Of a stretch of 52,148 nucleotides of DNA, positions 2,536 through 18,659 are shown in pieces. The stretch is from Parcubacteria group bacterium GW2011_GWA1_40_21. Lineage in GTDB: Bacteria > Patescibacteriota > Minisyncoccia > Phycocordibacterales > GWA1-40-21. The notes beneath the pieces were generated by a model that searched no databases, was not told the DNA's origin, and saw only the letters and a list, made by a program, of their open reading frames with translations. Made by a program: the position numbers and the translations under genes. Where the stretch lies: NCBI GenBank assembly GCA_000996205.1, contig LBYO01000002.1, forward strand, positions 1 through 52,148, given 5' to 3'. How positions within the stretch are numbered: the stretch's first letter is position 1; every line of letters begins with the position of its first letter.

Positions 2536-3612
2536 TTATAAATATTTTTCAATTATTGCTTTGTATATCCGTTTTGTTTTTTGCAAACTTTTTTTGCTCA
2601 CCCACTCATCCGACTGGTGAGCATTGAAAGGCCCTGGTCCAAGAATGATCATCTTAGAAGCCGCGCCGTCAAGAAAAGAACCATCCGTAAAATAATTTAC
2701 CCCTTCACTTTTATTTTTAGTGATTTTTTCCATATCAGAAATAAATTTTTTATCATCGCACTGCGCTGGTGGAACTGAAAACATAACTTTTACTTTAGCC
2801 TTGTATTTTTCTGAAATTTTTAAAAAGTTTCTGATTATTTCATTGTTCTGTTTCTCCTTAACGGTGCGACATTCTATTTCTAAAACACATTCATTTGGCA
2901 CCTTATTGACAGCATCTCCACCTTTTATTTTTCCCACATTAACAGTGGCGTAATTGGGCGTAAAAATATCATTTTTATCATTTTTAATGCGCACAAAATA
3001 TTCTTGAATTTCTTTAATAAAATCAGATGCAAGAATTATGGCGTTTAATCCTTTTTCAGGTTCGCTCCCGTGATATTCTTTGCCGAAAAAATTTACCACG
3101 AAAGAAACGATCCCCTTGGACGCGATTATTGGTTTAAGATTTGTAGGTTCTCCGACAATAATATAATCAGTGTCTATTTTTTTAGTTTTTGTAAAATCTG
3201 TTATTCCTTTAAAACTTATTTCTTCGTCGTATGTGAGTAATATGCTAAATCCATTTTTGCAATTTTTAAAATTTATTTGCGATAACGCGGATAACAAAGA
3301 AGCGATTCCGCCTTTCATATCAGAACTGCCAAGACCGTAAATTTTGTCCCCGTCAATTGTCATTTCAAAAGGGTCGTTTGTCCAATTTTTACCGGCGGAA
3401 ACAGTGTCCGTGTGTCCCAAAAAAGTTAAAATCGGTTTTTTACCGATTGTGGCAAAAAGATTTGCCTTATTGTCTTTGTTGTTTTTAATTAAGGAAACAT
3501 TAAAACCGAATGCGTTTAAAAAATCGCCTATCCAGCTTGTTATTTTAGCGTTTTCCTTATCGGAAACAGTATTAAATTTTATTAAATTTTTTAAAATATT
3601 TTCAATATTCAT
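2536..3612 (-). CDS. M20 family metallopeptidase/deacylase (ArgE/DapE-like)
   Basis: The 358-aa ORF carries FLGHTDTV, GLGSSDMKGG and LTYDEE, which are the M20 metal-ligand and catalytic motifs. Confidence 0.85.
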   Translation of the reverse strand: MNIENILKNLIKFNTVSDKENAKITSWIGDFLNAFGFNVSLIKNNKDNKANLFATIGKKPILTFLGHTDTVSAGKNWTNDPFEMTIDGDKIYGLGSSDMKGGIASLLSALSQINFKNCKNGFSILLTYDEEISFKGITDFTKTKKIDTDYIIVGEPTNLKPIIASKGIVSFVVNFFGKEYHGSEPEKGLNAIILASDFIKEIQEYFVRIKNDKNDIFTPNYATVNVGKIKGGDAVNKVPNECVLEIECRTVKEKQNNEIIRNFLKISEKYKAKVKVMFSVPPAQCDDKKFISDMEKITKNKSEGVNYFTDGSFLDGAASKMIILGPGPFNAHQSDEWVSKKSLQKTKRIYKAIIEKYL

Positions 3613-3673
3613 ATATTTTTATAAATAAAGGGAAGTGACTTTTGCGGCCACCTCCCTTTTTTGAAAATCAGCT

Positions 3674-4207
3674 TTATTGGAACATCGCCCAATAAGTCCT
3701 GTCAAAATGTTTACCGTCTTTAATCTTTAGATCACTAAAGCCCAACTTGCTATACATTTTTCTGGCTGGCACAGCGTTAATGTGTGTTCTTAAACACCAA
3801 CAATCAACCCCGATTTTCTTAGTTTGCTTGATGATACTTTTTGTTATCTTTCCGCCTATGCCATGCATCCTATGTTTCTTGTGGACACCAAGCTCATCAA
3901 TATAAAAGACTGCTTTTGATGCCTGTTCAAACAAGAAACTCAAGAGATTGCTGTTAGATATCGCCTCCATTAGTTTTTTGTCTATTTGATATCCCCATGT
4001 AAAACCTATTACTTTGTCTTTGTTAACAGCTACTATCAACATCGCCGCCTCTTTCTTTAATTGTTCTTGAATATCTCTCAAGACTTCTTTTTGTTTCCAA
4101 AAATATTCATTCCATGGCGGTTCTTTCCAAATCTCGCAATAAAGCCTAGCGGTTTTTTCAAGCAGTTTTTTGTCGCCATTATTACCGCAAATTTTTATAA
4201 TTTCCAT
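3674..4207 (-). CDS. GNAT family N-acetyltransferase
   Basis: It carries the GNAT motif A, ELGVHKKHRMHGIGGKI. The start was trimmed to the ATG at 4207 (MEIIKICG), which is preceded by AAGGAG. The ORF-track start at 4294 abuts the hisS stop codon. Confidence 0.8.
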   Translation of the reverse strand: MEIIKICGNNGDKKLLEKTARLYCEIWKEPPWNEYFWKQKEVLRDIQEQLKKEAAMLIVAVNKDKVIGFTWGYQIDKKLMEAISNSNLLSFLFEQASKAVFYIDELGVHKKHRMHGIGGKITKSIIKQTKKIGVDCWCLRTHINAVPARKMYSKLGFSDLKIKDGKHFDRTYWAMFQ

Positions 4208-4294
4208 CCGTATCTCCTTAAGATAAAAATTTAGACAGTCGTCAGTTATATTATAACTGACGACTGTCGCAAATAACACGAATTCGAAACTCAA

Positions 4295-5635
4295 CTACAT
4301 TATCTTGCTTACTTCCGAGCAAACATCATTCAAGTTTACAAAGTTCTGTTCCCCCGTTTCAAGATTCTTGATCTGGACACTGTTTTTATTAACTTCATCA
4401 TTACCAGCAATAATGGCAAACCTAAATCCCTTCTTGCTAGCGTATTTAAGTTGATCGCCTAATTTCTTGGAATCAAAATAAACTTCTGTTTTAATACCGC
4501 TATCCCTAAGTAAAGTGGCGATATTAAAATAGTAAGACATCAGGTTTTTATCCATTGATGTTATCAACACGAGAGCTGTCGTGGACGGACCGGTTTTTAT
4601 TATTCCCGCCTTAAGCAGTTGAGAAAACAGCCTTGTCAGTCCAATTGATATTCCCACCCCAGGCATTTTCTTGTCGCCAAAAAAACTCGTTAGATTGTCA
4701 TAGCGACCGCCGGAACAAATGCTTCCAATCCCAGGATAATCAATCAGTGTTGTTTCGTAAATCGTTCCCGTGTAATAATCCAAACCGCGAACAATGCCGA
4801 GGTTAATTTTGTAGCTCTCTTGAGGAATACCGAGAGAATTCATGTGTCCAATCACCTGTTCGAGCTCATCAACTCCTTGTAAGAACAATTCATTGTCTAC
4901 TTTGCAAGAACGGAGATATTCCATTGTTTCATTGATTGACTTGTTAATGCTGGCGAAATTGATTATGTCATCAATGGTGTTCGCACCTATTCCTTTTTCC
5001 GCCATTGTTTTTCTTGTTTCAGCTACTCCAACTTTTTCAAGCTTGTCTATCGCATGCATAGCTTCATTGATACAATGGCTACTTAATCCGTAAAAGCTAA
5101 AATAGCCCTGGAGTATTTTTTTGTTGTTCACATTTATCATGAACTTTCCAATATTCATTTGCTTGAATATTTGGTAAATAACACTCGGCATTTCAGCGTC
5201 TACTAAAAGTGGCAACTCTCTATCACCCACGACATCAATATCGCATTGATAAAATTCGCGGAATCGACCAGACTGTGGTCTTTCTCCGCGCCAGACTTTT
5301 TGAATCTGGTAACGACGGAATGGAAAACTTAAAAGACCGTAGTTTTGTACCACATAGCGAGCCAACGGCACAGTCAAATCGAAATGAAGCGCCAAGTTTT
5401 GGTCATTGTCGCCAGAATAATTAGACAAACGTCCCAAAGTATAAATTTCCCTGTCGTTAGAGCCTTTCGCTATAAGCATAGCCGTTTTTTCAACAGCGCT
5501 TGTCTCTATCGGCACAAATCCATACTTCTCAAAATTTTCGCGTATCATGTCTAAAATACTCTGTTCCAAAATTCTTTCTTCCGGCAACCATTCCGGGAAA
5601 CCGCTTATGGCTTCTGGCTTTAAAAAATTACTCAT
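4295..5635 (-). CDS. hisS: histidine--tRNA ligase, paralogue 1
   Basis: The 446-aa ORF carries GFPEWLPEE, DLTVPLARY, motif 2 FRRYQIQKVWRGERPQSGRFREFYQCDID, RGLDYYTG and GGRYDNL. It also has a C-terminal anticodon-binding domain. Confidence 0.85.
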   Translation of the reverse strand: MSNFLKPEAISGFPEWLPEERILEQSILDMIRENFEKYGFVPIETSAVEKTAMLIAKGSNDREIYTLGRLSNYSGDNDQNLALHFDLTVPLARYVVQNYGLLSFPFRRYQIQKVWRGERPQSGRFREFYQCDIDVVGDRELPLLVDAEMPSVIYQIFKQMNIGKFMINVNNKKILQGYFSFYGLSSHCINEAMHAIDKLEKVGVAETRKTMAEKGIGANTIDDIINFASINKSINETMEYLRSCKVDNELFLQGVDELEQVIGHMNSLGIPQESYKINLGIVRGLDYYTGTIYETTLIDYPGIGSICSGGRYDNLTSFFGDKKMPGVGISIGLTRLFSQLLKAGIIKTGPSTTALVLITSMDKNLMSYYFNIATLLRDSGIKTEVYFDSKKLGDQLKYASKKGFRFAIIAGNDEVNKNSVQIKNLETGEQNFVNLNDVCSEVSKIM

Positions 5636-5860
5636 GACATTTATCCTCTCAAAAATTTACGAGTCAAAGTTAACTAAAAAAACAATTTTTCTGCCCAACA
5701 TTCCCTATCGCATTGTAGCACCTCCTCCCTAAACAGTAAGAAACTGAAAAATAGAATTGCGATTTTTAACAGAAGCAACCTCCTTTCTTTAAATTGGCTT
5801 TATCATGTTTTAAAAGAACAATCGTTCCTATACAAAATACTATCTATATTCCCTCATTTG

Positions 5861-7468
5861 TCAATGTTTTGGGAATTCCACCAAAAACTCGCTTCCTTTG
5901 CCTTCCCCTTCCGACTCCGCCCAGATTTTGCCGTTATGAGCCAAAACAATGCTTTTCGCTATGAACAGTCCGAAGCCGGTGCTGTCAACATTTATCTTTT
6001 GGGAATTCTTGCCTTTGCCGCCTTCGGTAAACAATCTTTCTTTGTCTTCTTTTGTAAGTCCGACTCCCGTATCTTTGACACTAAACAGAATCTTGCCGTC
6101 ATTCTTGGACAAAGAAACGGTAATCTTGCCAGCGGGAGTATATTTGATTGAATTGTCTATGAGATTTTTGATGACATGCTTTAGCTGGAATTCATCCCCC
6201 GACATTTTGAAATCTCCTTCGTTGATATTTGTTTCAAAGGAAAGTTTTTTGTCATGGACGTTTTTATCTTGTTCTGAAATCACGCTCAAAACGAGTGCCT
6301 TAAAATCTAAAACCGCCTTGCTGTACTTCATAAGCCCGCCTTTTATGCTCGCGGCGTTTAAAACATCTTGGACCATAGCGATCCCGTCGTTGTCAGATCT
6401 CAATCCTTCTTTCGCGATTACTTCCATCTTTCCCTCAAGCCGGCCGTAATCTCCGTCAAGCATTGCCGAAAATATGTATTTGGATTTCGTGAAAAATCCT
6501 TTGACTTGATGAGTGATGAAGTGTATTAGATCTTCCTGTCTTTCGTTCGCGACTTGAAGCTGTTCTCCCTGTTCGGAAATAGTCTGCACGAATTTATTCA
6601 TCAAGAAGCTTACGATGAGCACTATCATAAAGACCGAGGATCGATAAATGACGGCGGAAATATCTTGCGCAAAAATTATTTCTGAAAATGAGACGATTGA
6701 GAGCACGAATGTCAATCCCGCAACCGCAGCTGTTCTTAAATTAAAAAGCCTGTGCTTGTATATCGCATAACCCGTAAACGCGACGAATGGGAAAATGAAA
6801 AGAGCACCAAGAGGAATAAATCTGACATTTAGAAAAACTGCAGGAAGAATCACATTAAATGTGATAAGTAAAGAAAACATTATAACAGTCCCAATTAAAA
6901 TCAAGATGTGCTGTTTTCTCTCTCTGCCTTTCGCTTTGAAAGTTTTTCTTATAAAAATACTTACCCCACCTAAGACTAGTCCTGCCACAACAAATAAAAA
7001 TAAAAATATACCGTTTGCCACGACAGTCTTTGACACCGAGCCGTCAGATGACAATTGGGCTATGCTTGGAAAAACTAGAGGTGTTAAGGTGATAGCAGAA
7101 GTGATTACAACAAGCGGTATCAATAAAAATTTATACATCCACGGAAAATAAATTTTTTCTTTGGGAAAGACATACAAAAAAGTAAAAAAAGTAAAAGCGT
7201 GCCAAACTCCAAGAAAGATAACTGCTCGCAAAAGCCAAAGAACAACCGTCGGCGAAGTTGCCTGATAATTTATGTAGTTAAAAAAGCTCCATAAAATGGT
7301 AATAATCGAGAAAATAAAAAAGAATTTATTCGTTATGCTCTTGCGATTAGTGATATAAATCACAAAGCCCAATATTCCTATAGCCGCGATAGTAGACCCA
7401 ACCGACAACAGATCAAAATTTTTTAAAGGAATATTTCGTATTACATTTGCAATTTCGCTAAGTAACAT
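5861..7468 (-). CDS. sensor histidine kinase with a multi-TM N-terminal domain
   Basis: About 9 predicted TM helices are followed by the H-box HFITHQVKG, N-box DNSIKYT, G1 DTGVGL and G2 GFGLFIAK. There is no response regulator in the window. Confidence 0.85.
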   Translation of the reverse strand: MLLSEIANVIRNIPLKNFDLLSVGSTIAAIGILGFVIYITNRKSITNKFFFIFSIITILWSFFNYINYQATSPTVVLWLLRAVIFLGVWHAFTFFTFLYVFPKEKIYFPWMYKFLLIPLVVITSAITLTPLVFPSIAQLSSDGSVSKTVVANGIFLFLFVVAGLVLGGVSIFIRKTFKAKGRERKQHILILIGTVIMFSLLITFNVILPAVFLNVRFIPLGALFIFPFVAFTGYAIYKHRLFNLRTAAVAGLTFVLSIVSFSEIIFAQDISAVIYRSSVFMIVLIVSFLMNKFVQTISEQGEQLQVANERQEDLIHFITHQVKGFFTKSKYIFSAMLDGDYGRLEGKMEVIAKEGLRSDNDGIAMVQDVLNAASIKGGLMKYSKAVLDFKALVLSVISEQDKNVHDKKLSFETNINEGDFKMSGDEFQLKHVIKNLIDNSIKYTPAGKITVSLSKNDGKILFSVKDTGVGLTKEDKERLFTEGGKGKNSQKINVDSTGFGLFIAKSIVLAHNGKIWAESEGEGKGSEFLVEFPKH

Positions 7469-7478
7469 ATTTTTGTAA

Positions 7479-8390
7479 TTAAATCTCTCTTAAATAATGA
7501 CCTGTATTCTTAAAAAAAGATACTTTAGAAAAATTCAAATTTATTTTCCCTGAATATCGCAACATTGAAAAAATAGTGCCGTTTAAAAATACGGGGTTAT
7601 TCCAAGCAACTATAGATTGCGGTATCATATGAAACCAGCTTCTATACCCATCATACTCCAAAGATTTTTTTGATATTTCCTTTATTATTTTATCCAGTTT
7701 ATCCTTATCAGATTCTTCAGTAAGGTGATGCTTAAAAAGAGAATTGTAGACTAAATCAAAATATTTTGGCGGGAATTCGGCACCAAGATTAAAAATATCG
7801 TTTTTACACAAAATGACAGTGATTCCTCTGTTCGTTTTTGCTATTTCTTCAAGTCTGTTTTTCGTCAAGTTTTCAACATCAACAATCTCAACTGCTTTTC
7901 CTAAAAAATTTAGATTTTCTTTTGCTATTTTATTGGTGATCGGCGATTTGTCCACTCCGATGAAGATAATCGGTTTGCCGTATTTTTTCTCAAGCAATTG
8001 AGAAATGACTTGTCTGTCAACTTCCATCCCTCCCGCGCCCAAGTTGGCTAGTATAAGAGGTCTGTTCTCTTTCAAAATACTCTGAATGACTTTATCTGCT
8101 AACGGTTTTACTAATCCCGGACGATCTTTCCTCTCCATTTCTATCAATCTCTTATGCATCCTCACATCCCACTCCTCCACCGGAAAATCCGTCAATTCCA
8201 GAAGTCTTGAACCGTCAATCTTTGACGCTCTGGTCAGAAGCCACCATACATAGCGGGGCAAAGATTTCATCGCCTCCGCGAATTGTATGTTTTCCTCAAT
8301 CGCGTAAAGTCGACCGCTATATCGCGAGTCGTTCTTGAACTCCCGCAACTTTTCCAAAATGCCCTCTATTTCCATTCTTCTTTTTTTCAT
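7479..8390 (-). CDS. class I SAM-dependent methyltransferase-like protein
   Basis: It carries LILANLGAGGME (motif I), FIGVDKS (motif II) and DLVYNSLFKHHL. The fold-level call is tentative. Confidence 0.5.
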   Translation of the reverse strand: MKKRRMEIEGILEKLREFKNDSRYSGRLYAIEENIQFAEAMKSLPRYVWWLLTRASKIDGSRLLELTDFPVEEWDVRMHKRLIEMERKDRPGLVKPLADKVIQSILKENRPLILANLGAGGMEVDRQVISQLLEKKYGKPIIFIGVDKSPITNKIAKENLNFLGKAVEIVDVENLTKNRLEEIAKTNRGITVILCKNDIFNLGAEFPPKYFDLVYNSLFKHHLTEESDKDKLDKIIKEISKKSLEYDGYRSWFHMIPQSIVAWNNPVFLNGTIFSMLRYSGKINLNFSKVSFFKNTGHYLREI

Positions 8391-8455
8391 AATTGGAAGA
8401 AACTATCAGATTTAATGATACTCAATAGTATATCAGATAATTCCAAAAATGTTTT

Positions 8456-9529
8456 TTATTTTACTTCATTCGCAAACAAAATGTTCGGCTTCATTCGCAT
8501 TGAGCGCGCGGAGGGTTCGTCGGCGTAGCCAATGCGGAATAGCATTGGAATAGTTTTGCCTTCAACTCCAAAAGTCCGCTCTATATCAGAATAAGCGATC
8601 TTTATTGTTTCTAAATGATTCTGGCTGAAAACGCCGACATCCCCGCCGCCCTTTATCCTTTCCATAAAATATATAACGCCGGTGCACGGGTGAACGCTCA
8701 ATCCCAATTCAGTCGCTTTGAGCCAGACTCTCTCTGCCGTCCGTCCGGCATTTATAAAATCTTCGCGACTGTTCCCTTTCGCGACGACGACAGCCAACGC
8801 GCCGGAATTGGCGTATTTTTCGGCATTTTCTTTGGCGATAATTCTTGAAACTTTTCCGATCTTGTTTAAAATTTTCAAAATCAGCCAATTTTTGAAGAGC
8901 TTCACGCCTTTGAGCTGGTGAGGCAGGAATTCAAGAGTCTTGATATAAAAACCTCCCGCTTTGTCTTGGTCTTCTTCTTTCCAAAGAATGTGCTCGTAGA
9001 AAAAATCATGCAACTTTTTATTTTCAAAAATAATTTGTTCATTCACCGCAAGCGCTTTACCGAGAGTGTTGAGCGATTCTTCATCATCAATAATTTTTAA
9101 TTCTCCAAGTCCGGCCTCTCTTGCTGTCTCAATCAGTTGTTTTTTCTGATCATCTGATAATTTTTGGTGCGCGTGATCCTTCCTGTTCGTGCACCTCTTT
9201 GCAATGAAAGGATACAACGACAGCTCTCTTGAGTTAGTCGCATCGAGCGTCAAAGTGGCAACAAGATTCTGCTCTTCCTTTATGGGAAATAATTTAACAC
9301 TAGCCTTGTATCCGTATTTCAAAGCGACGATGACAATGTTTTCAATAAGCGCGCCGTGCGCGGCATAAGAACCTTTTTGCTCAAAATTATAAAGGGATGT
9401 GTCCGCCTCCGGCACATTGAAAATATGAATATCGCTTCCATCCGCCGCGAATTTCCACGGCTGGCAATTCTCGCCGGACGGCGCAAATACACTTTCCGTG
9501 ATAATTTCTTGAATATCTTTGTTATTCAT
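8456..9529 (-). CDS. double nitroreductase-fold FMN-dependent oxidoreductase
   Basis: It has the APSGENCQPWKF signature, and its length fits two nitroreductase-like halves. The start was trimmed from the TTG at 9583 to the ATG at 9529. Confidence 0.7.
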   Translation of the reverse strand: MNNKDIQEIITESVFAPSGENCQPWKFAADGSDIHIFNVPEADTSLYNFEQKGSYAAHGALIENIVIVALKYGYKASVKLFPIKEEQNLVATLTLDATNSRELSLYPFIAKRCTNRKDHAHQKLSDDQKKQLIETAREAGLGELKIIDDEESLNTLGKALAVNEQIIFENKKLHDFFYEHILWKEEDQDKAGGFYIKTLEFLPHQLKGVKLFKNWLILKILNKIGKVSRIIAKENAEKYANSGALAVVVAKGNSREDFINAGRTAERVWLKATELGLSVHPCTGVIYFMERIKGGGDVGVFSQNHLETIKIAYSDIERTFGVEGKTIPMLFRIGYADEPSARSMRMKPNILFANEVK

Positions 9530-9673
9530 TTTTTTATATAAATCCAATAAAATAAAGAGATTTTTGAACGAGTCACAATTCAAAAAAACTTTATTTTAAT
9601 AATATAATAAAATAGGCAATAAACAAAATTTGTCGCTACATATTCTGATGCGTACAAGTATGAAAATCAATTT

Positions 9674-10321
9674 TTAATACAAAGACTGGAAATATTTTAA
9701 ACTTACTTTTATAAATTTTTCAGTATTTTGTTCTTTCGTCCAAATCTTTTTAATTTCCTCCAGCTTACTTTTCAAATCCGGATAAAACAAAAGCTCCTCT
9801 GCCCCTACGAACTTCTGAATTGCCTTTAAATTAAGAAAAATTACATTAAAAATTTCAGAAAGTTCCCACAAAGCCTTGTCATCCTTTATACCCAACTCGT
9901 GGCAAAAATCATAAAAGGCAAAGTGGGTTAATTCATGAGCAATAACTTCTTTCCGCATATCATGCGACCGTTTGTAATAAACTTGAAAAGATTTATTTTC
10001 CAAATAACGAGGATTACAATTAAAAATAGACAAATAGCAAGTGTAATTTTCTTTACTGAAATCTCGTCCGAAATACTTTTGAAGTTCAAGAAAAAGAGGC
10101 TCTTTTATTTCATCAAAACACAACTTGGTATCTTTTAGAATTTCTTCCAATTTACCCTTGCTTTTCAGATAAAAATTATCTATATATTCAATATGGTTTT
10201 CTTTACTAATATGAGGATGATCATCTTGTATTTTTTTGCCAAAATCCGCTCCACCAACCATGGCATCGCGGAAAGACATATACACCTCTTTATCCAATTG
10301 TTTATTTAATTCTATTTTCAT
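9674..10321 (-). CDS. hypothetical protein with an HExxH motif (possible zinc metallopeptidase)
   Basis: The only recognisable motif is EVIAHELTHFAF. The start was trimmed from the TTG at 10330 to the ATG at 10321. Confidence 0.4.
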   Translation of the reverse strand: MKIELNKQLDKEVYMSFRDAMVGGADFGKKIQDDHPHISKENHIEYIDNFYLKSKGKLEEILKDTKLCFDEIKEPLFLELQKYFGRDFSKENYTCYLSIFNCNPRYLENKSFQVYYKRSHDMRKEVIAHELTHFAFYDFCHELGIKDDKALWELSEIFNVIFLNLKAIQKFVGAEELLFYPDLKSKLEEIKKIWTKEQNTEKFIKVSLKYFQSLY

Positions 10322-10344
10322 ATTAGTCAATACAATGTAAATAT

Positions 10345-11541
10345 TTACAAATTGAATATTTTTTTAAAATTTTCGGCGATTTTGCCGCGTTTTTCAACTT
10401 CTTCAAGAGAATTATAATTCGGCACGAGTTTCTCGTCCAAAGATATGAGGGCGCGATTGTTTTCAAGGGGCTGGCCACAAAGAATTTTGCGGACACAATA
10501 AGCGACCGCCGAGCCGTTCACAAGGGCGGCGCCACCGAGCTGAGGCCATGAGACGATGGTCTTGCCCATCTCAAGAAGAGATTGCTGCATTCTTTCCGTC
10601 ACATTCTCCGGTCCGACATGTTTTGTTATCATCCTGCCGATTCCGAATTTGTCCAATTTGGAAAGCATCTCATAGGACACCTCGCCCATTCTTCCTTGAA
10701 AAAATGGAGTGTTCGGGTCAAGGTCATATCTTTCAATATCCACCACGGCGTTGTCGCCATTGTCCGCTGCCATTACCACCGCTATTTTATGTTTCTTCGC
10801 TTGTTCGCGAATAAGATATTTCACCGCTAAATTATCAAGCTCGTCAATCACAATATCTAAGCCTTCAAAAAATTTGCCGATGTTTTCTTTGGTCAAACCT
10901 TCCGGAAACAATTCCACTTCGGCGTAAGGATTGATTTCGTAAATTTGGCGCGCGGTCATCTCCACTTTTAAAACGCCGAGATTGTCCACGCCCGTCCTTA
11001 TTCTATTGGTATTGGAAAGAGCCAAACGGTCAAGATCGGCGAGCTTGATTCGCTTCGCTCCGCCCTGAAGAACAATTGCGAGCGCGACGCTGTTCCCGAC
11101 GCTAAGTCCGCCGATGCCGACTATCGCGTTATAAAATTTTTCTTGCTCCTCTTTGTTTATAAGATTTTTATTTCTGGCGGTTCTTACCATTTGAAAATCG
11201 TCTTCTTCCAGAATGTGTGTCAATTTGGAAAGCCACGGAAAATAAACCCAGTGGCCGCTCTGCCATATCGGACATTCTTTATCCAGCGCAGAATAATAAT
11301 CTTCAAACTTTTTCTTAAAATCGGGAGCGTAGACCATGCTCGGATTTTTCACCGCGAATAACTCGTTCTGCTGTTCTTTGTAATCATCAGCAACGTACTG
11401 GATTCTCCTCAAATTAAATAAATCATTGGCGGCATTCTGATCTTCCGATTTTTTAAAATCAAAGACGGTCGGCTTGGAATCAATGGCTGCCGACGCTCTT
11501 TCGTCTAAACTTTCTTTCAATTCTTGTGATATATTTTTCAT
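10345..11541 (-). CDS. ThiF/MoeB/E1-like adenylyltransferase with a ~135-aa N-terminal extension (Rv1355c/MoeY-like N-terminal half)
   Basis: IVGIGGLSVGNSVALAIVLQGGAKRIKLADLDRLALSNTNR is the E1 nucleotide-binding loop with the SN.NR motif, and VIDELDNLAVKYL is the DN motif. Confidence 0.8.
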   Translation of the reverse strand: MKNISQELKESLDERASAAIDSKPTVFDFKKSEDQNAANDLFNLRRIQYVADDYKEQQNELFAVKNPSMVYAPDFKKKFEDYYSALDKECPIWQSGHWVYFPWLSKLTHILEEDDFQMVRTARNKNLINKEEQEKFYNAIVGIGGLSVGNSVALAIVLQGGAKRIKLADLDRLALSNTNRIRTGVDNLGVLKVEMTARQIYEINPYAEVELFPEGLTKENIGKFFEGLDIVIDELDNLAVKYLIREQAKKHKIAVVMAADNGDNAVVDIERYDLDPNTPFFQGRMGEVSYEMLSKLDKFGIGRMITKHVGPENVTERMQQSLLEMGKTIVSWPQLGGAALVNGSAVAYCVRKILCGQPLENNRALISLDEKLVPNYNSLEEVEKRGKIAENFKKIFNL

Positions 11542-11574
11542 AAAATAAAAATTAAATTTTTAAAAACAACTTTT

Positions 11575-13104
11575 TTAAAGACGGATCGGATAATCTTTCT
11601 TCACCCACTTCTGCTTTGTTCCGCTCTTGAAATAAAGCGGGTGTTCATAATTCCATAAAATAATTTTAGGAACGACTCTTCCGGGCATCATATTGGCGTT
11701 ATTTTTATGCTCCGCGCTATTTTTCAAAAGCGATTCAACTATTGATTTCGTAATTTCCTTTTCCAGAGACCTCCCCGTCTTAACGCCATTTTTCAGCTCA
11801 ATATTAATCTCCAAATATTCATCGTGCTTCCTATCGTGCTTTGTGAACATTGTAAACCTTCCTGTAATATAACTCGCAAATTTAGCGCGTTCCAATCCCC
11901 CCTTCACATATTCCGGAAAAATAATCGCTCCGTAAAGCTTGGTGGACATATCCGTTCTCTCATACAAATATACCGACGGAAGCTCGGAAATTGTATTTTC
12001 CAGCCCTGCGCTTTTCGCCTCTTTTCTTATGTCTATTCCGTGCGACTTGAAGATTGAATCGGCATCATTCCAGCTGACAACTCCGCCGTTGTCGCCTATC
12101 TCGTATCGAAGGAAAGGTATAGTATTGTTGCCGGTACAATAAATATTTCCATTCGGTGATTCAAAATTGATGAATTCAGGATTAAACTGGGCGAAAGTCG
12201 GCAAGCGATTCGCCTCGGCAAATATATTTTTATATATATTCTTTCTTTCAAGGGCTATCCTCCGCATCATAATATTCACCGGAGTTTCTATCGCCATTGT
12301 TCCTATATCGGCGCTTCCATAAATATTCATAGTGCCGGTGTGAATATCTTGAATTCCAGTTTTATCAATTATGTATTCCCTGAATTTTTCAGAAAAAGAT
12401 TCAGCCGCGAAAATTATCCTGACATTGTGATCCTGCCATTTGACACCCTGGCTTTTGGCTTCATCAACGACATCTTTCATAAAAGGCGGATAGCCACAGA
12501 GTATTATCTGGTCAAACTTATGTCCTATATTTTTTAGCGCCTCAAAGATTTCCTTTTTGTTGACCCCGGGCGTAATAATCGTCAGAGGATAGCCTCGGCC
12601 AGAAATCAATCTAAAGGCCTGATAAGTAATCAGTCCGCCTATCCAGACACCCATGCCGAAGCACACTATAACTAGGGTTGATTTATTTACATCAATGCCA
12701 CTGTTCTCAAGAAAAATCTGATGATAAATGGACGATTGCCAATCCAAGATATGATTGCGCGGAAAATAAAAAGGCGCCCCTGTAGAACCTGATGTGGAAG
12801 TAAAAACTAAAGACTTCTTCAGATACCCGTTCCAAGTCAAATCCTCAAGCGGATATTGCCGCAGGTAGTTTTCCTTGCTTGTCGAGGGAACCGATTTGAA
12901 ATCTTTAAAATTTTTAACCTTAGCCGGATTGATTTTATTTTTCCGCAAAAAATCTTTGTAAGCCGGCACCTTTTCAGCCGCTTCGTGAAAAAGCTTAAGC
13001 GATACCTCCTCGGCTCTCTTTGTCCAATAATCGCTTTTTTTATCCTTTATCCGCTTTAGCGTTTTTCCCGCGATTTTCTTCTCTTCTCTATTATTTATAT
13101 TCAT
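11575..13104 (-). CDS. adenylate-forming ligase, PaaK / coenzyme F390 synthetase-like
   Basis: It carries the P-loop FTSTSGSTGAPFYF, plus YGSADIG and FLRYEIGDNG. Its 509-aa length is also consistent. Confidence 0.75.
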   Translation of the reverse strand: MNINNREEKKIAGKTLKRIKDKKSDYWTKRAEEVSLKLFHEAAEKVPAYKDFLRKNKINPAKVKNFKDFKSVPSTSKENYLRQYPLEDLTWNGYLKKSLVFTSTSGSTGAPFYFPRNHILDWQSSIYHQIFLENSGIDVNKSTLVIVCFGMGVWIGGLITYQAFRLISGRGYPLTIITPGVNKKEIFEALKNIGHKFDQIILCGYPPFMKDVVDEAKSQGVKWQDHNVRIIFAAESFSEKFREYIIDKTGIQDIHTGTMNIYGSADIGTMAIETPVNIMMRRIALERKNIYKNIFAEANRLPTFAQFNPEFINFESPNGNIYCTGNNTIPFLRYEIGDNGGVVSWNDADSIFKSHGIDIRKEAKSAGLENTISELPSVYLYERTDMSTKLYGAIIFPEYVKGGLERAKFASYITGRFTMFTKHDRKHDEYLEINIELKNGVKTGRSLEKEITKSIVESLLKNSAEHKNNANMMPGRVVPKIILWNYEHPLYFKSGTKQKWVKKDYPIRL

Positions 13105-13164
13105 AATCTTTTCTTGATGGCTCCAATAACCAAAAAAATACGCCGTCTTTTTGAATAGCGTATT

Positions 13165-13188
13165 TCAACTGCCAAATCAACTGCCAAA
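13165..13188. repeat. tandem direct 12-mer TCAACTGCCAAA x2 upstream of the 13104 operon
   Basis: The two copies are exact and adjacent. Confidence 0.6.
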
Positions 13189-13408
13189 ATTATTTTGCAA
13201 TACAGAAGCAGTCAAAGTTTTTTTGCCATTGTCAATGCGGATGGTATTGGCTATATTGCGTATTTCCATAAATTTATAAAAGTGCCTAAATTCTAGTGTG
13301 AAATATAGCTTTTGTAAAGCATTGACAAATAAGATTAACTGTGATAACCTTTTAATAGTTTTTTACAGGCTTTATAACTTTTTCTTTTAGAGAAATGGGG
13401 GGGAAGAA

Positions 13409-13783
13409 ATGAAAATTGAGATTAAAACAGATAATGTCGGCTTGTTAATTGGGATGTTGGAAATCTTAAAAAACAAAGATTATTTGGGGCAAACGATATT
13501 GGGTCCTAATGAAAGTCTAGACTTAATTCTAGACTTGAAAGAGAAGAAAATATTAAGACTGACAATTAGTAAAAGATTAAATTCATCTATTGGGAATTAC
13601 AGCGAGAGGGACCAAAGATCAATTTCTATATCAGACACTAATAGGTCAGTACTTAGTGATGTAGAGATTGTGCTTGTTTATGACTACGGGCAGAAATTCG
13701 TGAGTTCCATCAAATCTATCGAGGAAGCGGTGAAAAATAAGCAGGCCGAAATAAAAAAAGGCATTGAAAATAGTATCGGTTAA
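13409..13783 (+). CDS. hypothetical protein
   Basis: The 124-aa ORF has a purine-rich GGGGGGAAG 3 nt upstream of the ATG and a downstream terminator. It has no recognisable motif. Confidence 0.5.
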   Translation: MKIEIKTDNVGLLIGMLEILKNKDYLGQTILGPNESLDLILDLKEKKILRLTISKRLNSSIGNYSERDQRSISISDTNRSVLSDVEIVLVYDYGQKFVSSIKSIEEAVKNKQAEIKKGIENSIG

Positions 13784-13820
13784 ATCGGCTAAATCGATTA
13801 AATTTAGAAAAAATAGTCAA

Positions 13821-13875
13821 AAAGGGTCTTATGCGAGATTACAAAATCTTTTACATAAGACCCTTTATTTTTTTG
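13821..13875. terminator. bidirectional intrinsic terminator between the 13409 ORF and truB
   Basis: GGGTCTTATG and CATAAGACCC form a 10-bp stem. It is flanked by an A-run on one side and TTTATTTTTTT on the other. Confidence 0.6.
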
Positions 13876-13876
13876 A

Positions 13877-14719
13877 TTATATTTTCAGAGAATCCTTAAT
13901 TTCAAAATCACCGACTTTAGTCCTCTTTAGATTCAAAAGAGTCGCTCCTATCTTGAGATCTTTGCCGAGCTTATGAGCAATTGACCGGATATAAGTTCCG
14001 CTGGAACATTTGATTTTTATTTTTGCTGTCTGAAATTCAGCGCTATATGAAAATGGTACACAATTTCTGCTATCGCTGAAATTGTGTACCATTTTGTTTT
14101 TGAAATTTTGGAACTTGTTTGCGGGCTTATCCTTTAAAATTCCTTGCCATTTTTTCAAAATTTTTTCCTGACGGAAATCGCCTTTTACCTTTTGAATTTT
14201 TTTATTGATTTGAGCGAGCAGATTTCTCCCGTTAATTTTTTGCAGGCGCAGAATTTTGATTTCATAAATTTCTCTTTCTTTCTCTGGAATTTTTATATCT
14301 TTTATCTTTTCCTCTCGCGACCATTCAAAAAGAGGTTTGCCTTTTATCTTGTATGAAGAGTACGGCGGAAATGGCTGTTTGTTTTTTCCCAAAAATTTAT
14401 TTAAAAATCCGGCAAGCTCATCTTTGTGAAAATCTTTTATCACTTTTTTCCTTTTAGGCAACCCCAAAATGTCATAGGTATCCGTTTCAAATCCGAATAC
14501 TATTTCGGCTTCGTATTCCTTGTCCAGTTTAAGGTATTTTTCTTTTTCGTAAACGGCGCTTCCCGCAAGCAAAATTAAAACTCCCTCCGCCAGAGGGTCC
14601 AGCCGTCCGGCGTAAGTAATTTTTACGCTTTGATATTCAGGATTATTTGCGCGGAAACGGTTAATCACCTCAAGCGGAGTCTCACCCTCCCTTTTGTAAA
14701 TATTTAAAACTTTATTCAT
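13877..14719 (-). CDS. truB: tRNA pseudouridine(55) synthase
   Basis: It carries AGRLDPLAEGVLILL, which contains the catalytic Asp motif, and has TruB-like length and layout. Confidence 0.9.
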   Translation of the reverse strand: MNKVLNIYKREGETPLEVINRFRANNPEYQSVKITYAGRLDPLAEGVLILLAGSAVYEKEKYLKLDKEYEAEIVFGFETDTYDILGLPKRKKVIKDFHKDELAGFLNKFLGKNKQPFPPYSSYKIKGKPLFEWSREEKIKDIKIPEKEREIYEIKILRLQKINGRNLLAQINKKIQKVKGDFRQEKILKKWQGILKDKPANKFQNFKNKMVHNFSDSRNCVPFSYSAEFQTAKIKIKCSSGTYIRSIAHKLGKDLKIGATLLNLKRTKVGDFEIKDSLKI

Positions 14720-14955: not shown

Positions 14956-16275
14956 ATGAAGGAAAAAACCAACAAAAAAATCTCAACCGAATCTTACAAG
15001 GGCGTACGCGACTTCTATCCGCAAGATATGTTTGTCCAAAATTACATATTCGGAATTATGAGAAAAGTGGCGGAAAGTTTCGGCTACAACGAATATGGAG
15101 CTTCTATTTTGGAACCAGCCGATCTTTACCGAGCCAAGACCGGAGATGAAATCGTGAACGAGCAAACCTATTCGTTCAAAGACCGCGGGGACAGAGAGGT
15201 GACATTGCGTCCAGAGATGACGCCGACTGCCGCCAGAATGGTGGCGGCGAAAAAGCGCGAGTTTTCTTTTCCTCTGCGATGGTATTCAATCCCCAATCTC
15301 TTCAGATACGAACAGCCGCAGAAAGGACGGCTCCGCGAGCATTGGCAGTTGAACGCCGACATATTCGGAGTGGAAAGTATTGAAGCGGAAATTGAAATTA
15401 TTTCAATCGCGCGCGCAATTATGAAAGCATTCGGACTGAAAGACGGAGATTATGAAATAAGGGTGAATGACCGAAAAATTATGAACTATATTCTGGAAGA
15501 TTTCTTGTCGCTCTCGCCTGCCGAATCTCATAGTGTTTCAAAAATCATAGATAAAAAAGACAAGATGAGCAAAGAAGATTTTGCCGACAAAATCCGCTCT
15601 ATTGTCGGAGAAAAAAGTGACGAACTTACAAATCTTCTCCATTCAAAAAACCTTGAAGAATTTATTTCTCTTCTGCCGGAAAAAGCCCGAACGCATCAAG
15701 GCGTATTGGAAATCAAAGAACTTCAGAATAAACTCGCCGAACTTGGTATTAAAAACACCGTGTTCAGCCCGACGCTTATGCGCGGCTTTGATTATTACAC
15801 TGGAATCGTGTTTGAAATTTTTGACACCAATCCGGAAAATCGCCGCGCGATTTTCGGCGGAGGGAGATACGATGATCTGTTAAGCATTTTCGGCGCCGAA
15901 AAAATCCCGGCGGTCGGCTTTGGAATGGGAGATGTGACCACTCGCGATGTTCTTGAGACTTATGGTCTTATGCCGAAATACAAGCCAGCCACGGAACTTT
16001 ATATCTGCGTTTTGGAAGAAAAATACCGGAATTATGCGCGCCAATTGGCGCAAGACTTGAGAGAAGACGGACTTAACGTCGCCGTTGACTCCTCCGGCAA
16101 GAAAGTCGGCGATCAGATAAAATACGCCGACAAAAACTTGATACCTTTTATTGTGTGCGTAGGAGAAAATGAAGTTAAAAATGAAGAATTAAAAATAAAA
16201 AATCTAAAATCGGGCGAAGAAACTGCCTTGAAAGCCTCTAAGGTTTATGATTTTTTAAAGAATAAAAAATCATAA
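14956..16275 (+). CDS. hisS: histidine--tRNA ligase, paralogue 2
   Basis: The 439-aa ORF carries YKGVRDFYPQD, TLRPEMTPTAARM, motif 2 LRWYSIPNLFRYEQPQKGRLREHWQLNADIFG, RGFDYYTG and GGGRYDDL. It also has a C-terminal anticodon-binding domain. Confidence 0.85.
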   Translation: MKEKTNKKISTESYKGVRDFYPQDMFVQNYIFGIMRKVAESFGYNEYGASILEPADLYRAKTGDEIVNEQTYSFKDRGDREVTLRPEMTPTAARMVAAKKREFSFPLRWYSIPNLFRYEQPQKGRLREHWQLNADIFGVESIEAEIEIISIARAIMKAFGLKDGDYEIRVNDRKIMNYILEDFLSLSPAESHSVSKIIDKKDKMSKEDFADKIRSIVGEKSDELTNLLHSKNLEEFISLLPEKARTHQGVLEIKELQNKLAELGIKNTVFSPTLMRGFDYYTGIVFEIFDTNPENRRAIFGGGRYDDLLSIFGAEKIPAVGFGMGDVTTRDVLETYGLMPKYKPATELYICVLEEKYRNYARQLAQDLREDGLNVAVDSSGKKVGDQIKYADKNLIPFIVCVGENEVKNEELKIKNLKSGEETALKASKVYDFLKNKKS

Positions 16276-16338: not shown

Positions 16339-16914
16339 ATGAGAAAATTGATATTTGATATTGAGACGAAAAATTCTTTTCAAGAAGTCGGGAGCAACAA
16401 TCCGGCAGATTTGGATATTTCTGTTGTCTGCGTCTACGACTATAAATCAGATCAATACAATAGTTATTTGGAAAAAGATTTTAAAAATCTCTGGCCGATT
16501 ATTGAAAAAGCCGATATGCTTATTGGCTACAATTCCGAACATTTTGACACTCCTCTCTTGAATAAATATTATCCGGGCGACCTAACCAAAATTAAAAATT
16601 TGGACATCCTCAAAGAAATAAAAAGCTCGCTCGGCAGGAGAATAAAGCTGGACACTATCGCCGAAGCTACTCTCGGCAAGAAAAAGACAGGTCACGGACT
16701 TGAAGCCATTACTTGGTGGAAGAATGGCGAGGTGGATAAAATAATCAAATACTGTCTGGAAGATGTGAAAATAACCAAAGAAGTCTATGAGTACGCCCTC
16801 AAAAACGGATTACTCAAATATAAAGATGGAAATGAATTGAAAGAAATAAAACTGGACGTGAGCCATTGGGAAGAGGAAATCGCAAGTTCAATAACGCATA
16901 CTCTGCCGTTTTAG
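16339..16914 (+). CDS. RNase H-fold 3'-5' exonuclease-like protein (DEDD type)
   Basis: It carries LIFDIETKN (Exo I, D.E), GYNSEHFDTPLL (Exo II) and YCLEDVKITKEVY (Exo III-like). Confidence 0.6.
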   Translation: MRKLIFDIETKNSFQEVGSNNPADLDISVVCVYDYKSDQYNSYLEKDFKNLWPIIEKADMLIGYNSEHFDTPLLNKYYPGDLTKIKNLDILKEIKSSLGRRIKLDTIAEATLGKKKTGHGLEAITWWKNGEVDKIIKYCLEDVKITKEVYEYALKNGLLKYKDGNELKEIKLDVSHWEEEIASSITHTLPF

Positions 16915-17190
16915 AATTTTGAGTCACAAAAATGCTTCTGAATCTGATGCGAAATTAAGTTATTTTGTAAATAAAAAAACTGCTCAACTATTTAATATCT
17001 AAACAAGATAAGTAATAGGTGAGCAGAGTATTAATAGATTAATGCTAACTGAAACATTTTTTAAAACAGAAATCCGTATACGGTACTAACAAAAATTTGG
17101 CTAAAACTAAAATGATAATAGGAAATAATAAGAATACTAATATGTCCGTGTATATATTATTCTTGATAAATAGAGTTTTTCCACGGAGTC

Positions 17191-17607
17191 TTATCTCTGA
17201 TATTCCTCTCTTGTGTTCATAACTATCTTTGGCCCACACAATAAAGTTTTTTTATTATCATGCCAGTATTTAATTTGATAGACCAATCGATAGTTATTGT
17301 TAAAATAACTTGAATACTCACTTTCTATCTTAACTGTCACTTTCCCATTTCCCTCTGTCAATTTCTTAAACGAATCCAGATCAATCAATGAATAATAGAC
17401 TGCGGGATCGTCCGATTGAGAAACAGGATCAAGATATGGCATCACTGAGACAACATCATTTGATATATCATTTTTCAACTCATAATTGCTTGGTAGCCAG
17501 ATAATTACCGATTCTAGTGAAGGTCGAGCCAAAAAGATAAACTCTAAAATAATAATCCCGCCTAAAATAAACATGTTAAATCCAACTTTTCGTGATTTAT
17601 TGCTCAT
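17191..17607 (-). CDS. hypothetical membrane-anchored protein
   Basis: The ATG is preceded by a strong SD (ACGGAGGA), and there is an N-terminal TM helix. The 3' end overlaps ORF 17045-17239 at an A7 tract (see findings). Confidence 0.55.
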   Translation of the reverse strand: MSNKSRKVGFNMFILGGIIILEFIFLARPSLESVIIWLPSNYELKNDISNDVVSVMPYLDPVSQSDDPAVYYSLIDLDSFKKLTEGNGKVTVKIESEYSSYFNNNYRLVYQIKYWHDNKKTLLCGPKIVMNTREEYQR

Positions 17608-17793
17608 TTATATCCTCCGTATATACTGCAAATTTCATTTCACTTAATTTAGCTGACTAACACTAGTCGCTTAGCCGTTATTTCAAAAAACAAATTTATT
17701 TCATTTAAGCACCCTTTAACATGAGTGTCAAGTTTTTTTCACAATTTTTTCACAATAAATTCCGTTTACACAAACACATAATTTTCATTAAAC

Positions 17794-18579
17794 CTACTCA
17801 ATAAGCAAAAACGAGAACATTAGGGCTATGCCGCCAAGTATGGAAATGAATTGAATCGCGGATTTTTTTGGGTCCGATGTTTTGTGGATTTCAGGGACGA
17901 GGTCCGAACCAGCGATGTAGATGAATCCGCCGGCAGCGATGGAAATTATGAACGGTGTGAATCCTTCTATTTTAGCGCCAAGCAGTAGAGCGATGATTAC
18001 TCCAAGGACTGCTGACAGAGCAGAATAAAAATTAAAAAGCAGAGCCTTGAATTTGGAAAAACCGTAGTGAAGAAGCAAGCCGAATTGCCCTATCTCTTGA
18101 GGTATCTCATGAAGAATGACTGCTATTGTCGTGGTGATTCCGACCTCTATGCTTACCATATAACTCGCGGCGATAATTATGCCGTCAAGAAAATTGTGAG
18201 CGGTATCGCTTAAAAGTATCATATAGCCTGCCGGTTTGATTTGTGTTTCCTCCTTGTGAACTTCAGAGTGGACTTCGCAAACCTCATCGGCTTCAGTATG
18301 GCTGTGCCGCCAATGGATGAATTTTTCAAGAACAAAAAAAATTATTATTCCCAGAAGAATAAAGGCGGAGATTACCGAACCGGAAATTCCGCTTTCAAAA
18401 GCCTCGGGTATGAGGTGCACAAAAGTGTCTCCGAAAAGCGCGCCTACGGAAAAACTGACCAAAACGAATATAATTCCTTTCAAAATTTTTTCATTTACGG
18501 AAATAAAAAATAGCCCAACAAAAGAAATCAGGCTGACGATGAGAACACTGACACCGCTGTATATTGATACGGTTAGCAT
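17794..18579 (-). CDS. zupT: ZIP family divalent metal transporter
   Basis: It carries HNFLDGIIIAASY and HEIPQEIGQFGLL, which are ZIP signature helices, and has 8 predicted TM segments. Confidence 0.85.
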   Translation of the reverse strand: MLTVSIYSGVSVLIVSLISFVGLFFISVNEKILKGIIFVLVSFSVGALFGDTFVHLIPEAFESGISGSVISAFILLGIIIFFVLEKFIHWRHSHTEADEVCEVHSEVHKEETQIKPAGYMILLSDTAHNFLDGIIIAASYMVSIEVGITTTIAVILHEIPQEIGQFGLLLHYGFSKFKALLFNFYSALSAVLGVIIALLLGAKIEGFTPFIISIAAGGFIYIAGSDLVPEIHKTSDPKKSAIQFISILGGIALMFSFLLIE

Positions 18580-18587
18580 TTTATAAA

Positions 18588-18629: not shown

Positions 18630-18659
18630 GTATCTTAATATAAATTAATTTATAAAAAA

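Follow-up and report, generated by a model that had tools for sequence, protein, structure and literature searches.

The contig LBYO01000002.1 of Parcubacteria group bacterium GW2011_GWA1_40_21 (assembly GCA_000996205.1), analysed here over 52,148 nucleotides (nt) and hereafter called the window, carries a minus-strand gene cluster encoding an adenylate-forming ligase of the PaaK fold, a ThiF/E1-like protein (E1), an Acg-type flavin oxidase and a seven-transmembrane (7TM) histidine kinase. We found that these four genes form a core whose order is conserved across Patescibacteria and that, judged by profile alignment, the E1 and the oxidase correspond to the N- and C-terminal halves of the oxazolone-forming protein Rv1355c/TrzS, of which they form a split homologue. 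Our analysis suggests, with a probability that we put at about one half, that the module specifies an oxazolone or N-acyl (dehydro)amino acid pathway that would be supplied by the ligase and functionally tied to the kinase. The original prediction, made from the letters of the window, had described an operon of six genes, the core plus an HExxH protein and a methyltransferase-like protein, and had matched it to no known pathway. The observation is confirmed and its interpretation is partly supported: the E1, oxidase and methyltransferase map onto an already known and recently defined pathway type, that of the oxazolones and stieleriacines, while their combination with ligase and kinase is new. 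New here are the PaaK-fold ligase in the place of the usual synthase, the conservation of the module across Patescibacteria and the coupling to a 7TM kinase.

All six genes proved to be open reading frames (ORFs) on the minus strand, 10-144 nt apart, and the domain calls for their products were borne out by Pfam and NCBIfam, by AlphaFold2 models and by Foldseek. To sample other genomes, we scanned one genome per species with the ligase, which gave 127 confirmed loci, and used the best 80 (individual loci are cited by our L numbers). These were all from Patescibacteria, including groups of Paceibacteria as well as Uhrbacteria, Magasanikbacteria, Doudnabacteria and Gracilibacteria. Gene presence was scored by tblastn with the window proteins, and the count of order and co-occurrence was restricted to those loci, 52 in number, in which the sequence continues for 5.5 kb or more 3' of the ligase. 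Downstream of the ligase and on its strand, all 52 have the E1, 49 the oxidase and 48 the kinase; 45 have the full set. A reciprocal sample of 80 metagenome loci, entered from the 7TM domain of the kinase, gave a matching picture: the oxidase or the methyltransferase lay immediately upstream in 58 of the 64 loci with room, ligase, E1 and oxidase all lay upstream in 33 of the 41 with room, and only two loci with room had no module enzyme at all. Co-occurrence outside this genome is therefore far above chance for four of the six genes. The operon is not a fixed unit of six genes: the kinase, which the original prediction had given only as a sixth gene, belongs to the core, the methyltransferase is optional (13 of the 80 genome loci, 20 of the 80 metagenome loci) and the HExxH gene is a lineage-specific insertion, confined within the module to close relatives of the window and detected by tblastn in none of the 80 species-representative loci and in one of the 80 metagenome loci. 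Two metagenome-assembled genomes carry two copies of the module (L023/L034 and L058/L076).

The E1-like protein (10345-11541; 398 aa), a predicted adenylating cyclase resembling TyzB, has a Pfam ThiF domain at residues 127-259, preceded by an N-terminal extension. Its residues 19-376 align to positions 8-343 of the 722 in the NCBIfam model NF005901 ('Rv1355c family') with an E-value of 2.5e-97 and 327 bits, a match that takes in the extension, and the other ThiF, MoeB and TcdA models score it at no more than 75 bits. The oxidase (8456-9529), a tandem nitroreductase-fold and presumably flavin-dependent protein resembling TyzC, aligns to the stretch 372-713 of NF005901 (E = 1.4e-58), to NF011424, a related family of fused proteins (E = 7.8e-63), and to the Acg family NF047509 (E = 1.4e-38); its sole PDB relative by sequence is Acg (2YMV). 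Each half scores under the full-length cut-off of NF005901, at 327 and 199 bits against 476. The idea that the two genes are a split version of the Rv1355c/MoeY architecture is thus upheld by the alignment positions. The accompanying statement, that this type has no established function, has been overtaken: Rv1355c is TrzS, an enzyme of N-acyl tryptazolone synthesis (PMC12856293).

Ten residues of the E1 (G145, G149, D169, D171, N177, N179, R180, K192, E234 and D236) do not vary across 17 aligned homologues, and at least 98% of 67 Patescibacteria homologues keep each of them. G145 and G149 belong to the nucleotide loop, and D169, D171, R180 and D236 answer the call of the original prediction for conserved ATP-binding Arg and Asp residues. 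D236 lies in a D-x-x-D-N motif, in which we take it, from knowledge of the motif, to be the counterpart of MoeB D130, ThiF D127 and TrzS D217. The last of these, in the ThiF motif of TrzS, is essential by experiment (PMC12856293). That the ATP/Mg residues are intact argues against a non-catalytic docking role. Neither an invariant Cys nor a CxxC zinc motif was found in the 17-sequence alignment or among the 67 homologues, which argues against thioester or persulfide chemistry. The best PDB relative of the E1 is TcdA, so that the closest solved structure belongs to another ThiF-like cyclodehydratase. Of 52 oxidase homologues, at least 98% keep an A-P-S-G-x-N-x-Q-P-W stretch (residues 34-43) that resembles a flavin-binding motif, as well as R130, N133 and R134. 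We therefore predict that the E1 is of the catalytic adenylating type of the oxazolone-synthetase family: it has a ThiF-like domain of the Rv1355c/TyzB/OxzB type with the adenylation residues, and an Acg/TyzC-type oxidase adjoins its gene in 49 of the 52 loci, parted from it in the window only by the inserted HExxH gene.

The characterised members of this family offer close comparisons. In Pseudoalteromonas rubra, the oxazolone synthetase OxzB, in which ThiF and nitroreductase parts are fused, uses N-acyl tyrosine or phenylalanine supplied by the acyltransferase OxzA (bioRxiv 10.1101/2020.06.11.147165). In M. tuberculosis, the ThiF-like TyzB performs an ATP-dependent cyclisation and the flavin oxidase TyzC an O2-dependent desaturation, with TyzA as the acyltransferase and with tyrosine and phenylalanine as the amino acids (PMC10404671), while TrzS, acting with TrzA, combines an ATP-dependent cyclase and an O2-dependent desaturase to give N-acyl tryptazolones (PMC12856293). 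In planctomycetes, the stieleriacine clusters join a methyltransferase, a ThiF protein and a nitroreductase to an N-acyl amino acid synthase (PMC12479983). The Patescibacteria module shares with TyzACB a split ThiF cyclase and Acg-type oxidase encoded side by side (TyzB, Rv2338c; TyzC, Rv2337c), whereas TrzS ('MoeY') and OxzB have the halves fused, and the split proteins align to the two halves with the N-terminal extension included. It differs in the supplier of the N-acyl amino acid, which is the acyl-CoA-dependent TyzA in the TyzACB operon and the acyltransferase TrzA or OxzA beside the fused enzymes, in contrast to the PaaK-fold ligase here. TyzACB also belongs to Actinomycetota and lacks a co-conserved histidine kinase, unlike the kinase-bearing module of Patescibacteria. 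With the N-acyl dehydrotyrosine clusters for stieleriacine, for thalassotalic acid and for kyonggic acid it shares the set of methyltransferase, ThiF protein and nitroreductase; those clusters carry a NasY synthase and the present one does not, having instead the kinase and a methyltransferase from a small, Patescibacteria-restricted family. Stieleriacine-type clusters end in N-acyl dehydro-amino acids and not in isolated oxazolones, and the same is plausible for the module. Our literature search returned nothing that links ThiF, nitroreductase and phenylacetate-CoA ligase, oxazolones and Patescibacteria, or the module genes with Patescibacteria or with a histidine kinase.

The ligase (11575-13104; 509 aa), first in the module, is an adenylate-forming protein of the ANL superfamily. 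It has no Pfam match; its NCBIfam matches to PaaK and F390 synthetase are weak and confined to the N-terminal part (E = 1e-13), and a phmmer search of the PDB finds PaaK at E = 8e-5. An AlphaFold2 model built from 17 homologues (predicted local distance difference test, pLDDT, 83.8) gave PaaK1/PaaK2 and BT_0428 as the best Foldseek matches (E about 1e-20), with ClxA at 2e-15. Although the fold is common to both, the protein scores as no PaaK-type phenylacetate-CoA ligase: the PaaK equivalog models reach 48-50 bits against cut-offs of 646-700, and align to residues 36-267 only. ANL-like motifs are invariant (T104-S-G-S-x-G-x-P111, Y262-G, I336-G-D and K497/K499). More than 1900 homologues were found, and every organism-named one among the top 120 is from Patescibacteria. 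The gene sits upstream, where oxzAB and trzAS have their acyltransferase, and the acyl-CoA- or acyl carrier protein-dependent N-acyl amino acid synthase that adjoins oxazolone synthetases elsewhere is missing: no acyltransferase was found in the module by Pfam and NCBIfam in the window, nor in the Pfam-annotated loci L001, L002/L003, L084/L085, L169, L170 and L171. Two genes for GCN5-related N-acetyltransferases (GNAT) lie elsewhere in the window, at 3674-4294 and 42667-43176. The first was considered as the missing N-acyltransferase and rejected, having no counterpart in 83 loci (L001-L083).

Precedents for a ligase in this role exist. ClxA is an ATP-dependent amide/ester ligase that does not need CoA, and both it and NatL2, likewise of the PaaK fold, form amides without CoA (PMC12519233). 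Together with PfxC, these enzymes of benzoxazole pathways have the same PaaK-like ANL fold and couple an adenylated acid to an amine or phenol without CoA; they share only about 16% identity with the window ligase and work in another biosynthetic context, and ClxA and NatL2 have a C-terminal domain-swap extension.

In the pathway that we propose, the ligase would activate a free, possibly aryl-type, carboxylic acid with ATP and form an amide with an amino acid directly; we assign it this role because of its upstream position, its PaaK fold and the absence of an acyltransferase. The E1 would then adenylate the carboxylate of the N-acyl amino acid and close the oxazolone ring, by analogy with OxzB, TyzBC and TrzS, and the Acg-type oxidase would set the alpha,beta double bond by C-alpha/C-beta desaturation. 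The product would be an N-acyl dehydro-amino acid or an oxazolone, methylated in those lineages that have the methyltransferase. Pathways to oxazolones and N-acyl dehydro-amino acids were discovered between 2021 and 2025, and their discoverers speculate on a biological role in signalling. A dedicated small-molecule pathway is unexpected in a phylum of minimal metabolism, and its assignment would give a function to a four-gene block now labelled hypothetical or 'phenylacetate-CoA ligase' in many Patescibacteria genomes. A ligase that makes amides directly would also be a candidate biocatalyst.

The kinase, presumably co-transcribed with the enzymes, would be functionally linked to their product. 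The simplest form of such a link is that of a membrane receptor for it, in the manner of CqsA/CqsS; otherwise the kinase would regulate the pathway. The kinase gene (5861-7468; 535 aa) is last in the module, and its product combines a Pfam HisKA_7TM domain (E = 1.6e-12) with a dimerisation and histidine phosphotransfer (DHp) region and a HATPase_c domain (E = 1.9e-25). At least 98% of 22 homologues retain H320, and Pfam HisKA was detected in the orthologues of L001 and L002. With a phospho-acceptor His, a HATPase_c domain and a sensor domain, the protein has by sequence the make-up of a two-component sensor histidine kinase. Mean identity to the window protein is 47% in the 7TM domain and 46% in the ATPase domain, compared with 31% in the DHp region. 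Between the upstream gene (oxidase or methyltransferase) and the kinase, the annotated gap measures 1-3 nt in L001, L002 and L084, compared with 10 nt in the window. We tie the kinase to the product because of its almost exclusive linkage to the enzymes and the conservation of the sensor domain. No ligand for HisKA_7TM is described in the searchable literature. Signal synthase genes conserved as a unit beside a gene for a polytopic membrane histidine kinase are familiar from CqsA/CqsS, LuxM/LuxN, AgrBD/AgrC and ComQX/ComP. These pairs have no sequence kinship with the module; the likeness is one of synthase-kinase gene arrangement, with HisKA_7TM as the putative sensing domain.

A further step, which we offer tentatively, is that the module is a self-contained circuit of signal synthase and receptor, widespread in Patescibacteria, in which the kinase senses a labile product. 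Such a circuit would provide chemical cell-cell or symbiont-host signalling for ultra-small, host-dependent bacteria and would contain the first receptor for oxazolones. The linkage of kinase and enzymes makes the signalling hypothesis directly testable.

Several observations weigh against the proposed pathway or against particular parts of it. The P-loop of the ligase, TSGSTGAP, has no Lys, unlike that of PaaK, and the sequence is compatible with either an amine or CoA as acceptor, without telling the two apart. In loci L118 and L153 (5422-9599) the ligase is directly followed by oxidase and kinase, and no E1 was detected within 8 kb. Some loci have very divergent oxidases, that of L058 being missed by tblastn. 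Many Patescibacteria inhabit anoxic groundwater, whereas the characterised oxidases use O2. The 52-kb window yielded no response regulator, and only about a quarter of loci have one adjoining the module; the operon kinase may merely regulate, and not bind the product. Finally, the peptide-type inserts that recur in the module (radical SAM/SPASM with HExxH proteins, a Cys-rich peptide, S9 peptidases, an MvdD-like ATP-grasp enzyme and aminoacyl-tRNA synthetase-like paralogues) also fit a peptide substrate.

Two of these points bear on a variant of the same oxazolone-type chemistry in which the ligase is a PaaK-like aryl- or acyl-CoA ligase, an unlinked acyltransferase performs the N-acylation, and the kinase is a regulator sensing an unrelated external cue. 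True CoA ligases are indeed the top structural matches of the ligase (PaaK1/2, BT_0428 and 2-hydroxyisobutyryl-CoA ligase), the Joint Genome Institute labels its relatives phenylacetate-CoA ligase, the two GNAT genes of the window could be candidates for the acyltransferase, and two-component kinases often adjoin operons under their control. No acyltransferase is conserved with the module, however, and the lack of any counterpart of the 3674-4294 gene counts here as well. Patescibacteria generally have little CoA or fatty-acid metabolism, which also disfavours a CoA ligase. As for the kinase, a 7TM domain that is found almost only beside these enzymes and is conserved like a catalytic domain exceeds what a generic regulator would lead one to expect. 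We consider this variant unlikely, if still a serious contender.

A second alternative starts from the peptide-type inserts. In a pathway resembling those of peptides that are ribosomally synthesised and then modified after translation (RiPPs), the E1 would act like MccB and PaaA and adenylate a ribosomal peptide at its C-terminal carboxylate, the oxidase would desaturate the C-terminal residue, and the ligase, the methyltransferase, the HExxH protein as a peptidase and radical SAM enzymes would tailor or process the peptide. The C-terminal residue of a peptide is formally an N-acyl amino acid, and most characterised ThiF-like enzymes work on peptides, proteins or tRNA (PMC12596934), which favours such a substrate. 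Peptide-type genes do recur in or beside the module: in L084/L085, L006 and L089, in the loci with S9 peptidases, and in L067 with its ATP-grasp gene.

These genes take various forms. In L084/L085 (L084 4380-6601), which are near relatives of the window, a RiPP-like cassette lies between E1 and oxidase and encodes, in order, a 33-aa Cys-rich ORF MKKVSKKQLAEVAGKISTSVLLAQNCACGCSCH (ending in NCACGCSCH), a 457-aa radical SAM protein and the HExxH protein. Loci L089/L124 (2035-5847) have oxidase, methyltransferase and kinase, and no ligase or E1 within 6 kb; upstream are a radical SAM/SPASM protein, whose best NCBIfam match is anaerobic sulfatase maturase followed by peptide-maturase models, two HExxH ORFs and a small alpha/beta-hydrolase-like ORF. 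An HExxH motif there, HEISHFLFFD, resembles HELTHFAFYD of the window. In L107 (1937-5204), whose oxidase is 87% identical to that of the window, three genes separate oxidase and methyltransferase: a 377-aa ORF without a family match, an S66 LD-carboxypeptidase/MccF-like peptidase and a 372-aa protein with a class II core like that of asparaginyl-tRNA synthetase and asparagine synthetase A. An S9 peptidase is clearly present in four loci (L036, L058, L059 and L067), L067 also has an MvdD-like ATP-grasp gene, and L006 has a radical SAM/SPASM protein and a Peptidase_MA_2 protein.

Each peptide-type gene is, however, limited to few lineages and missing from most loci. A scan of small ORFs over 82 loci (the 80 species-representative loci plus L001 and L084) and the window found no conserved small, precursor or ubiquitin-like ORF upstream of, in or beside the module, and the small ORFs of the 304-nt region 5' of the ligase (13105-13408), where the original prediction had advised a search for a conserved small ORF, have no conserved counterparts 5' of the ligase in these loci. 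By a margin of more than 250 bits, and with its N-terminal domain included, the E1 goes with the family in which small N-acyl amino acids are the substrates of the characterised members, and PaaA and MccB are far weaker PDB matches to it than TcdA, ThiF and MoeB. A peptide pathway thus appears decidedly unlikely to us.

Activation of a sulfur carrier or ubiquitin-like protein, as by ThiF, MoeB or E1 with the carrier encoded elsewhere, is a third alternative; cofactor sulfur transfer of this kind had been named as a known pathway onto which the gene set might map. The Pfam ThiF domain and weak matches to ThiF, MoeB and UbaA models speak for it. Those of ThiF, MoeB, MoeZ and UbaA score only 44-75 bits against cut-offs of 150-650, in contrast to the 327 bits of the Rv1355c model, and neither the Gly-Gly-ended carrier nor the Cys or CxxC of that class was found: ORFs ending in Gly-Gly near the module were antisense shadow ORFs only (82 loci), and the annotated module contexts hold no rhodanese, E2, JAB or ThiS/MoaD gene. 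We regard this explanation as highly improbable. Weaker still, to the point of being scarcely credible, is a synthetase of azole or azoline rings that dispenses with YcaO, like those of thiazole/oxazole-modified microcins (TOMM; McbBCD, SagBCD), with the E1 as docking 'C' protein and the nitroreductase-fold 'B' protein as dehydrogenase: the module shares with TOMM systems the superficial pairing of an E1-like with a flavin mononucleotide-dependent nitroreductase-fold protein, which had led the original prediction to the analogy with McbB/McbC and SagC/SagB, but TOMM synthesis needs YcaO and a precursor peptide and neither was found, the E1 is of the catalytic adenylating type and keeps the ATP/Mg residues, unlike non-catalytic TOMM C proteins, and by NCBIfam and PDB matches the oxidase is Acg/TyzC-type, not SagB-type. 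The lack of YcaO, of a ubiquitin-like protein and of a precursor peptide had itself been predicted and holds across window scans, annotated loci and the 82-locus ORF scan; for YcaO, the Pfam and NCBIfam scans covered the annotated loci and the large ORFs of the window, two RpoB/RpoC-sized ORFs excepted.

The proposed oxazolone-type pathway would include the methyltransferase as a predicted optional tailoring member. This 303-aa protein (7479-8390) has a predicted class I S-adenosylmethionine-dependent methyltransferase fold (AlphaFold2 model, pLDDT 94.2), and its top Foldseek matches are all class I enzymes (CmoA, BamL, CysG, NovO/CouO and Coq5; E about 1e-6), many of its structural matches coming from natural-product pathways. 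G118, G120 and D147 are invariant, and the protein shows what marks the class: a Rossmann-like fold of seven strands, a motif I rich in Gly and, following strand 2, an acidic residue. The family comprises only 115 proteins, of which the organism-named members are from Patescibacteria. Where present, its gene lies between oxidase and kinase.

The HExxH gene (9674-10321), by its distribution, is outside the core module and a passenger of a separate cassette. Its product has a zincin motif and belongs to an uncharacterised family whose named members are from Patescibacteria and whose aligned members share 63-87% identity; H129, E130, H133, a downstream E156 and three Cys are invariant. Searches of Pfam, NCBIfam and PDB, by single sequence and by profile, gave no match. 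Among 1.8 billion representatives, a profile search brought up 432 relatives, and 10 remote ones among these had no meaningful Pfam match; hhalign against the Peptidase_MA_2-like protein of L006 aligned the motif only, at 2.6% probability. Of the cassette in L084/L085, the window keeps this gene alone, and L107 also has it ahead of the oxidase. L004 lacks it although its ligase is 87% identical to that of the window, and its E1-oxidase spacing is about 145 nt. The family also occurs outside the module in L086-L088, after a radical SAM/SPASM gene and a methyltransferase in L087/L088 and between HAD hydrolase and NDK genes in L086. In these off-module settings, genes for Peptidase_S66, Peptidase_S51, NUDIX and NTPase_I-T proteins recur in the neighbourhood; the window has a Peptidase_S51 gene (49796-50452) about 40 kb away from its HExxH gene.

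The intergenic stretch 5' of the oxidase gene (9530-9673, read on the minus strand) shows conservation at the DNA level: about 100 nt align among the window, L004 and L107, whether or not the HExxH gene is present, which places the insertion between the E1 gene and a conserved intergenic element. This stretch may be an internal promoter or regulatory region. The promoter of the module presumably lies in 13105-13408, the region upstream of the ligase, which a divergent ORF without conservation shares. The region has a -35/-10-like site (13318-13290), and the scan counts there are no higher than expected from shuffled sequence. Over 3400-14000, counts of promoters and terminators equalled those of shuffled controls, so that the scan does not define the operon, and Rfam matched nothing in the window, 9530-9673 included. 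From ligase to kinase, the gaps between the six genes are 33, 23, 144, 65 and 10 nt. The longest ORFs of the HExxH and oxidase genes open at TTG codons (10330 and 9583, respectively), and homologue N-termini favour the ATG starts at 10321 and 9529.

Other neighbours of the module vary. TrmB-family regulators lie in or beside it in 10 of the 80 genome loci and 5 of the 80 metagenome loci, and none was found in the window. A Peptidase_M19 gene (membrane dipeptidase/dehydropeptidase family) adjoins it in five loci (L006, L022, L034, L169 and L171), a short-chain dehydrogenase/reductase (SDR) gene lies between ligase and E1 in L170 and L171, and a class IV aminotransferase gene stands beside the ligase in some loci. 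L058, L064 and L083 have a divergent E1 adjoining the kinase. The M19, SDR and aminotransferase neighbours, like the 3-deoxy-D-arabino-heptulosonate 7-phosphate (DAHP) synthase and chorismate-related ones described below, fit amino-acid or dehydro-amino-acid chemistry.

Beyond the kinase, a DAHP synthase gene follows directly 3' in L004 (16823-17863) and L121 (2084-2779), both close relatives. The window has its DAHP synthase at 1069-2112 on the minus strand, and a block of about 3.7 kb (2536-5635) with genes for a histidyl-tRNA synthetase (HisRS), a GNAT protein and an M20 peptidase lies between it and the kinase, which suggests that the block was inserted in the window or lost from L004 and L121. 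DAHP synthase, with which the synthesis of aromatic amino acids begins, is unexpected in a reduced genome. In the Uhrbacteria locus L002, kinase and response regulator are followed by a chorismate mutase, a Trp-repressor-like gene and an anthranilate synthase. After the module in L001, whose contig measures about 1 Mb, comes a gene (16411-21545) for a very large protein, longer than 1988 aa, that has SpvB, TcdB_toxin_midN, RHS and YD-shell domains.

The remaining window is ordinary chromosome, with genes for sigma-70, DnaG, RNase R, SMC, TrmD, a SecA fragment, a UvrD-like helicase and a ZIP transporter; its G+C content is about 38%, and its close relatives are Parcubacteria/Patescibacteria metagenome-assembled genomes. 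Upstream of the ligase, a divergent 124-aa ORF on the plus strand (13409-13783) matches no family and has no counterpart in the 83 loci L001-L083; L084 holds an unrelated 104-aa ORF at this position. Two full-length HisRS genes lie within 11 kb and flank the module, at 4295-5635 on the minus strand and 14956-16275 on the plus strand, and both exceed the TIGR00442 hisS cut-off (396 and 381 bits against 287). A HisRS-like gene adjoins the kinase in L064, and a fragment-sized HisRS match lies 5' of the ligase in L006. Directly 3' of the stop codon of the minus-strand HisRS gene, a perfect 16-bp hairpin is followed by a T-rich tail (4234-4268, minus strand). This hairpin falls inside the longest GNAT ORF (3674-4294), the start of which probably lies farther downstream, the next in-frame Met being at about 4210.

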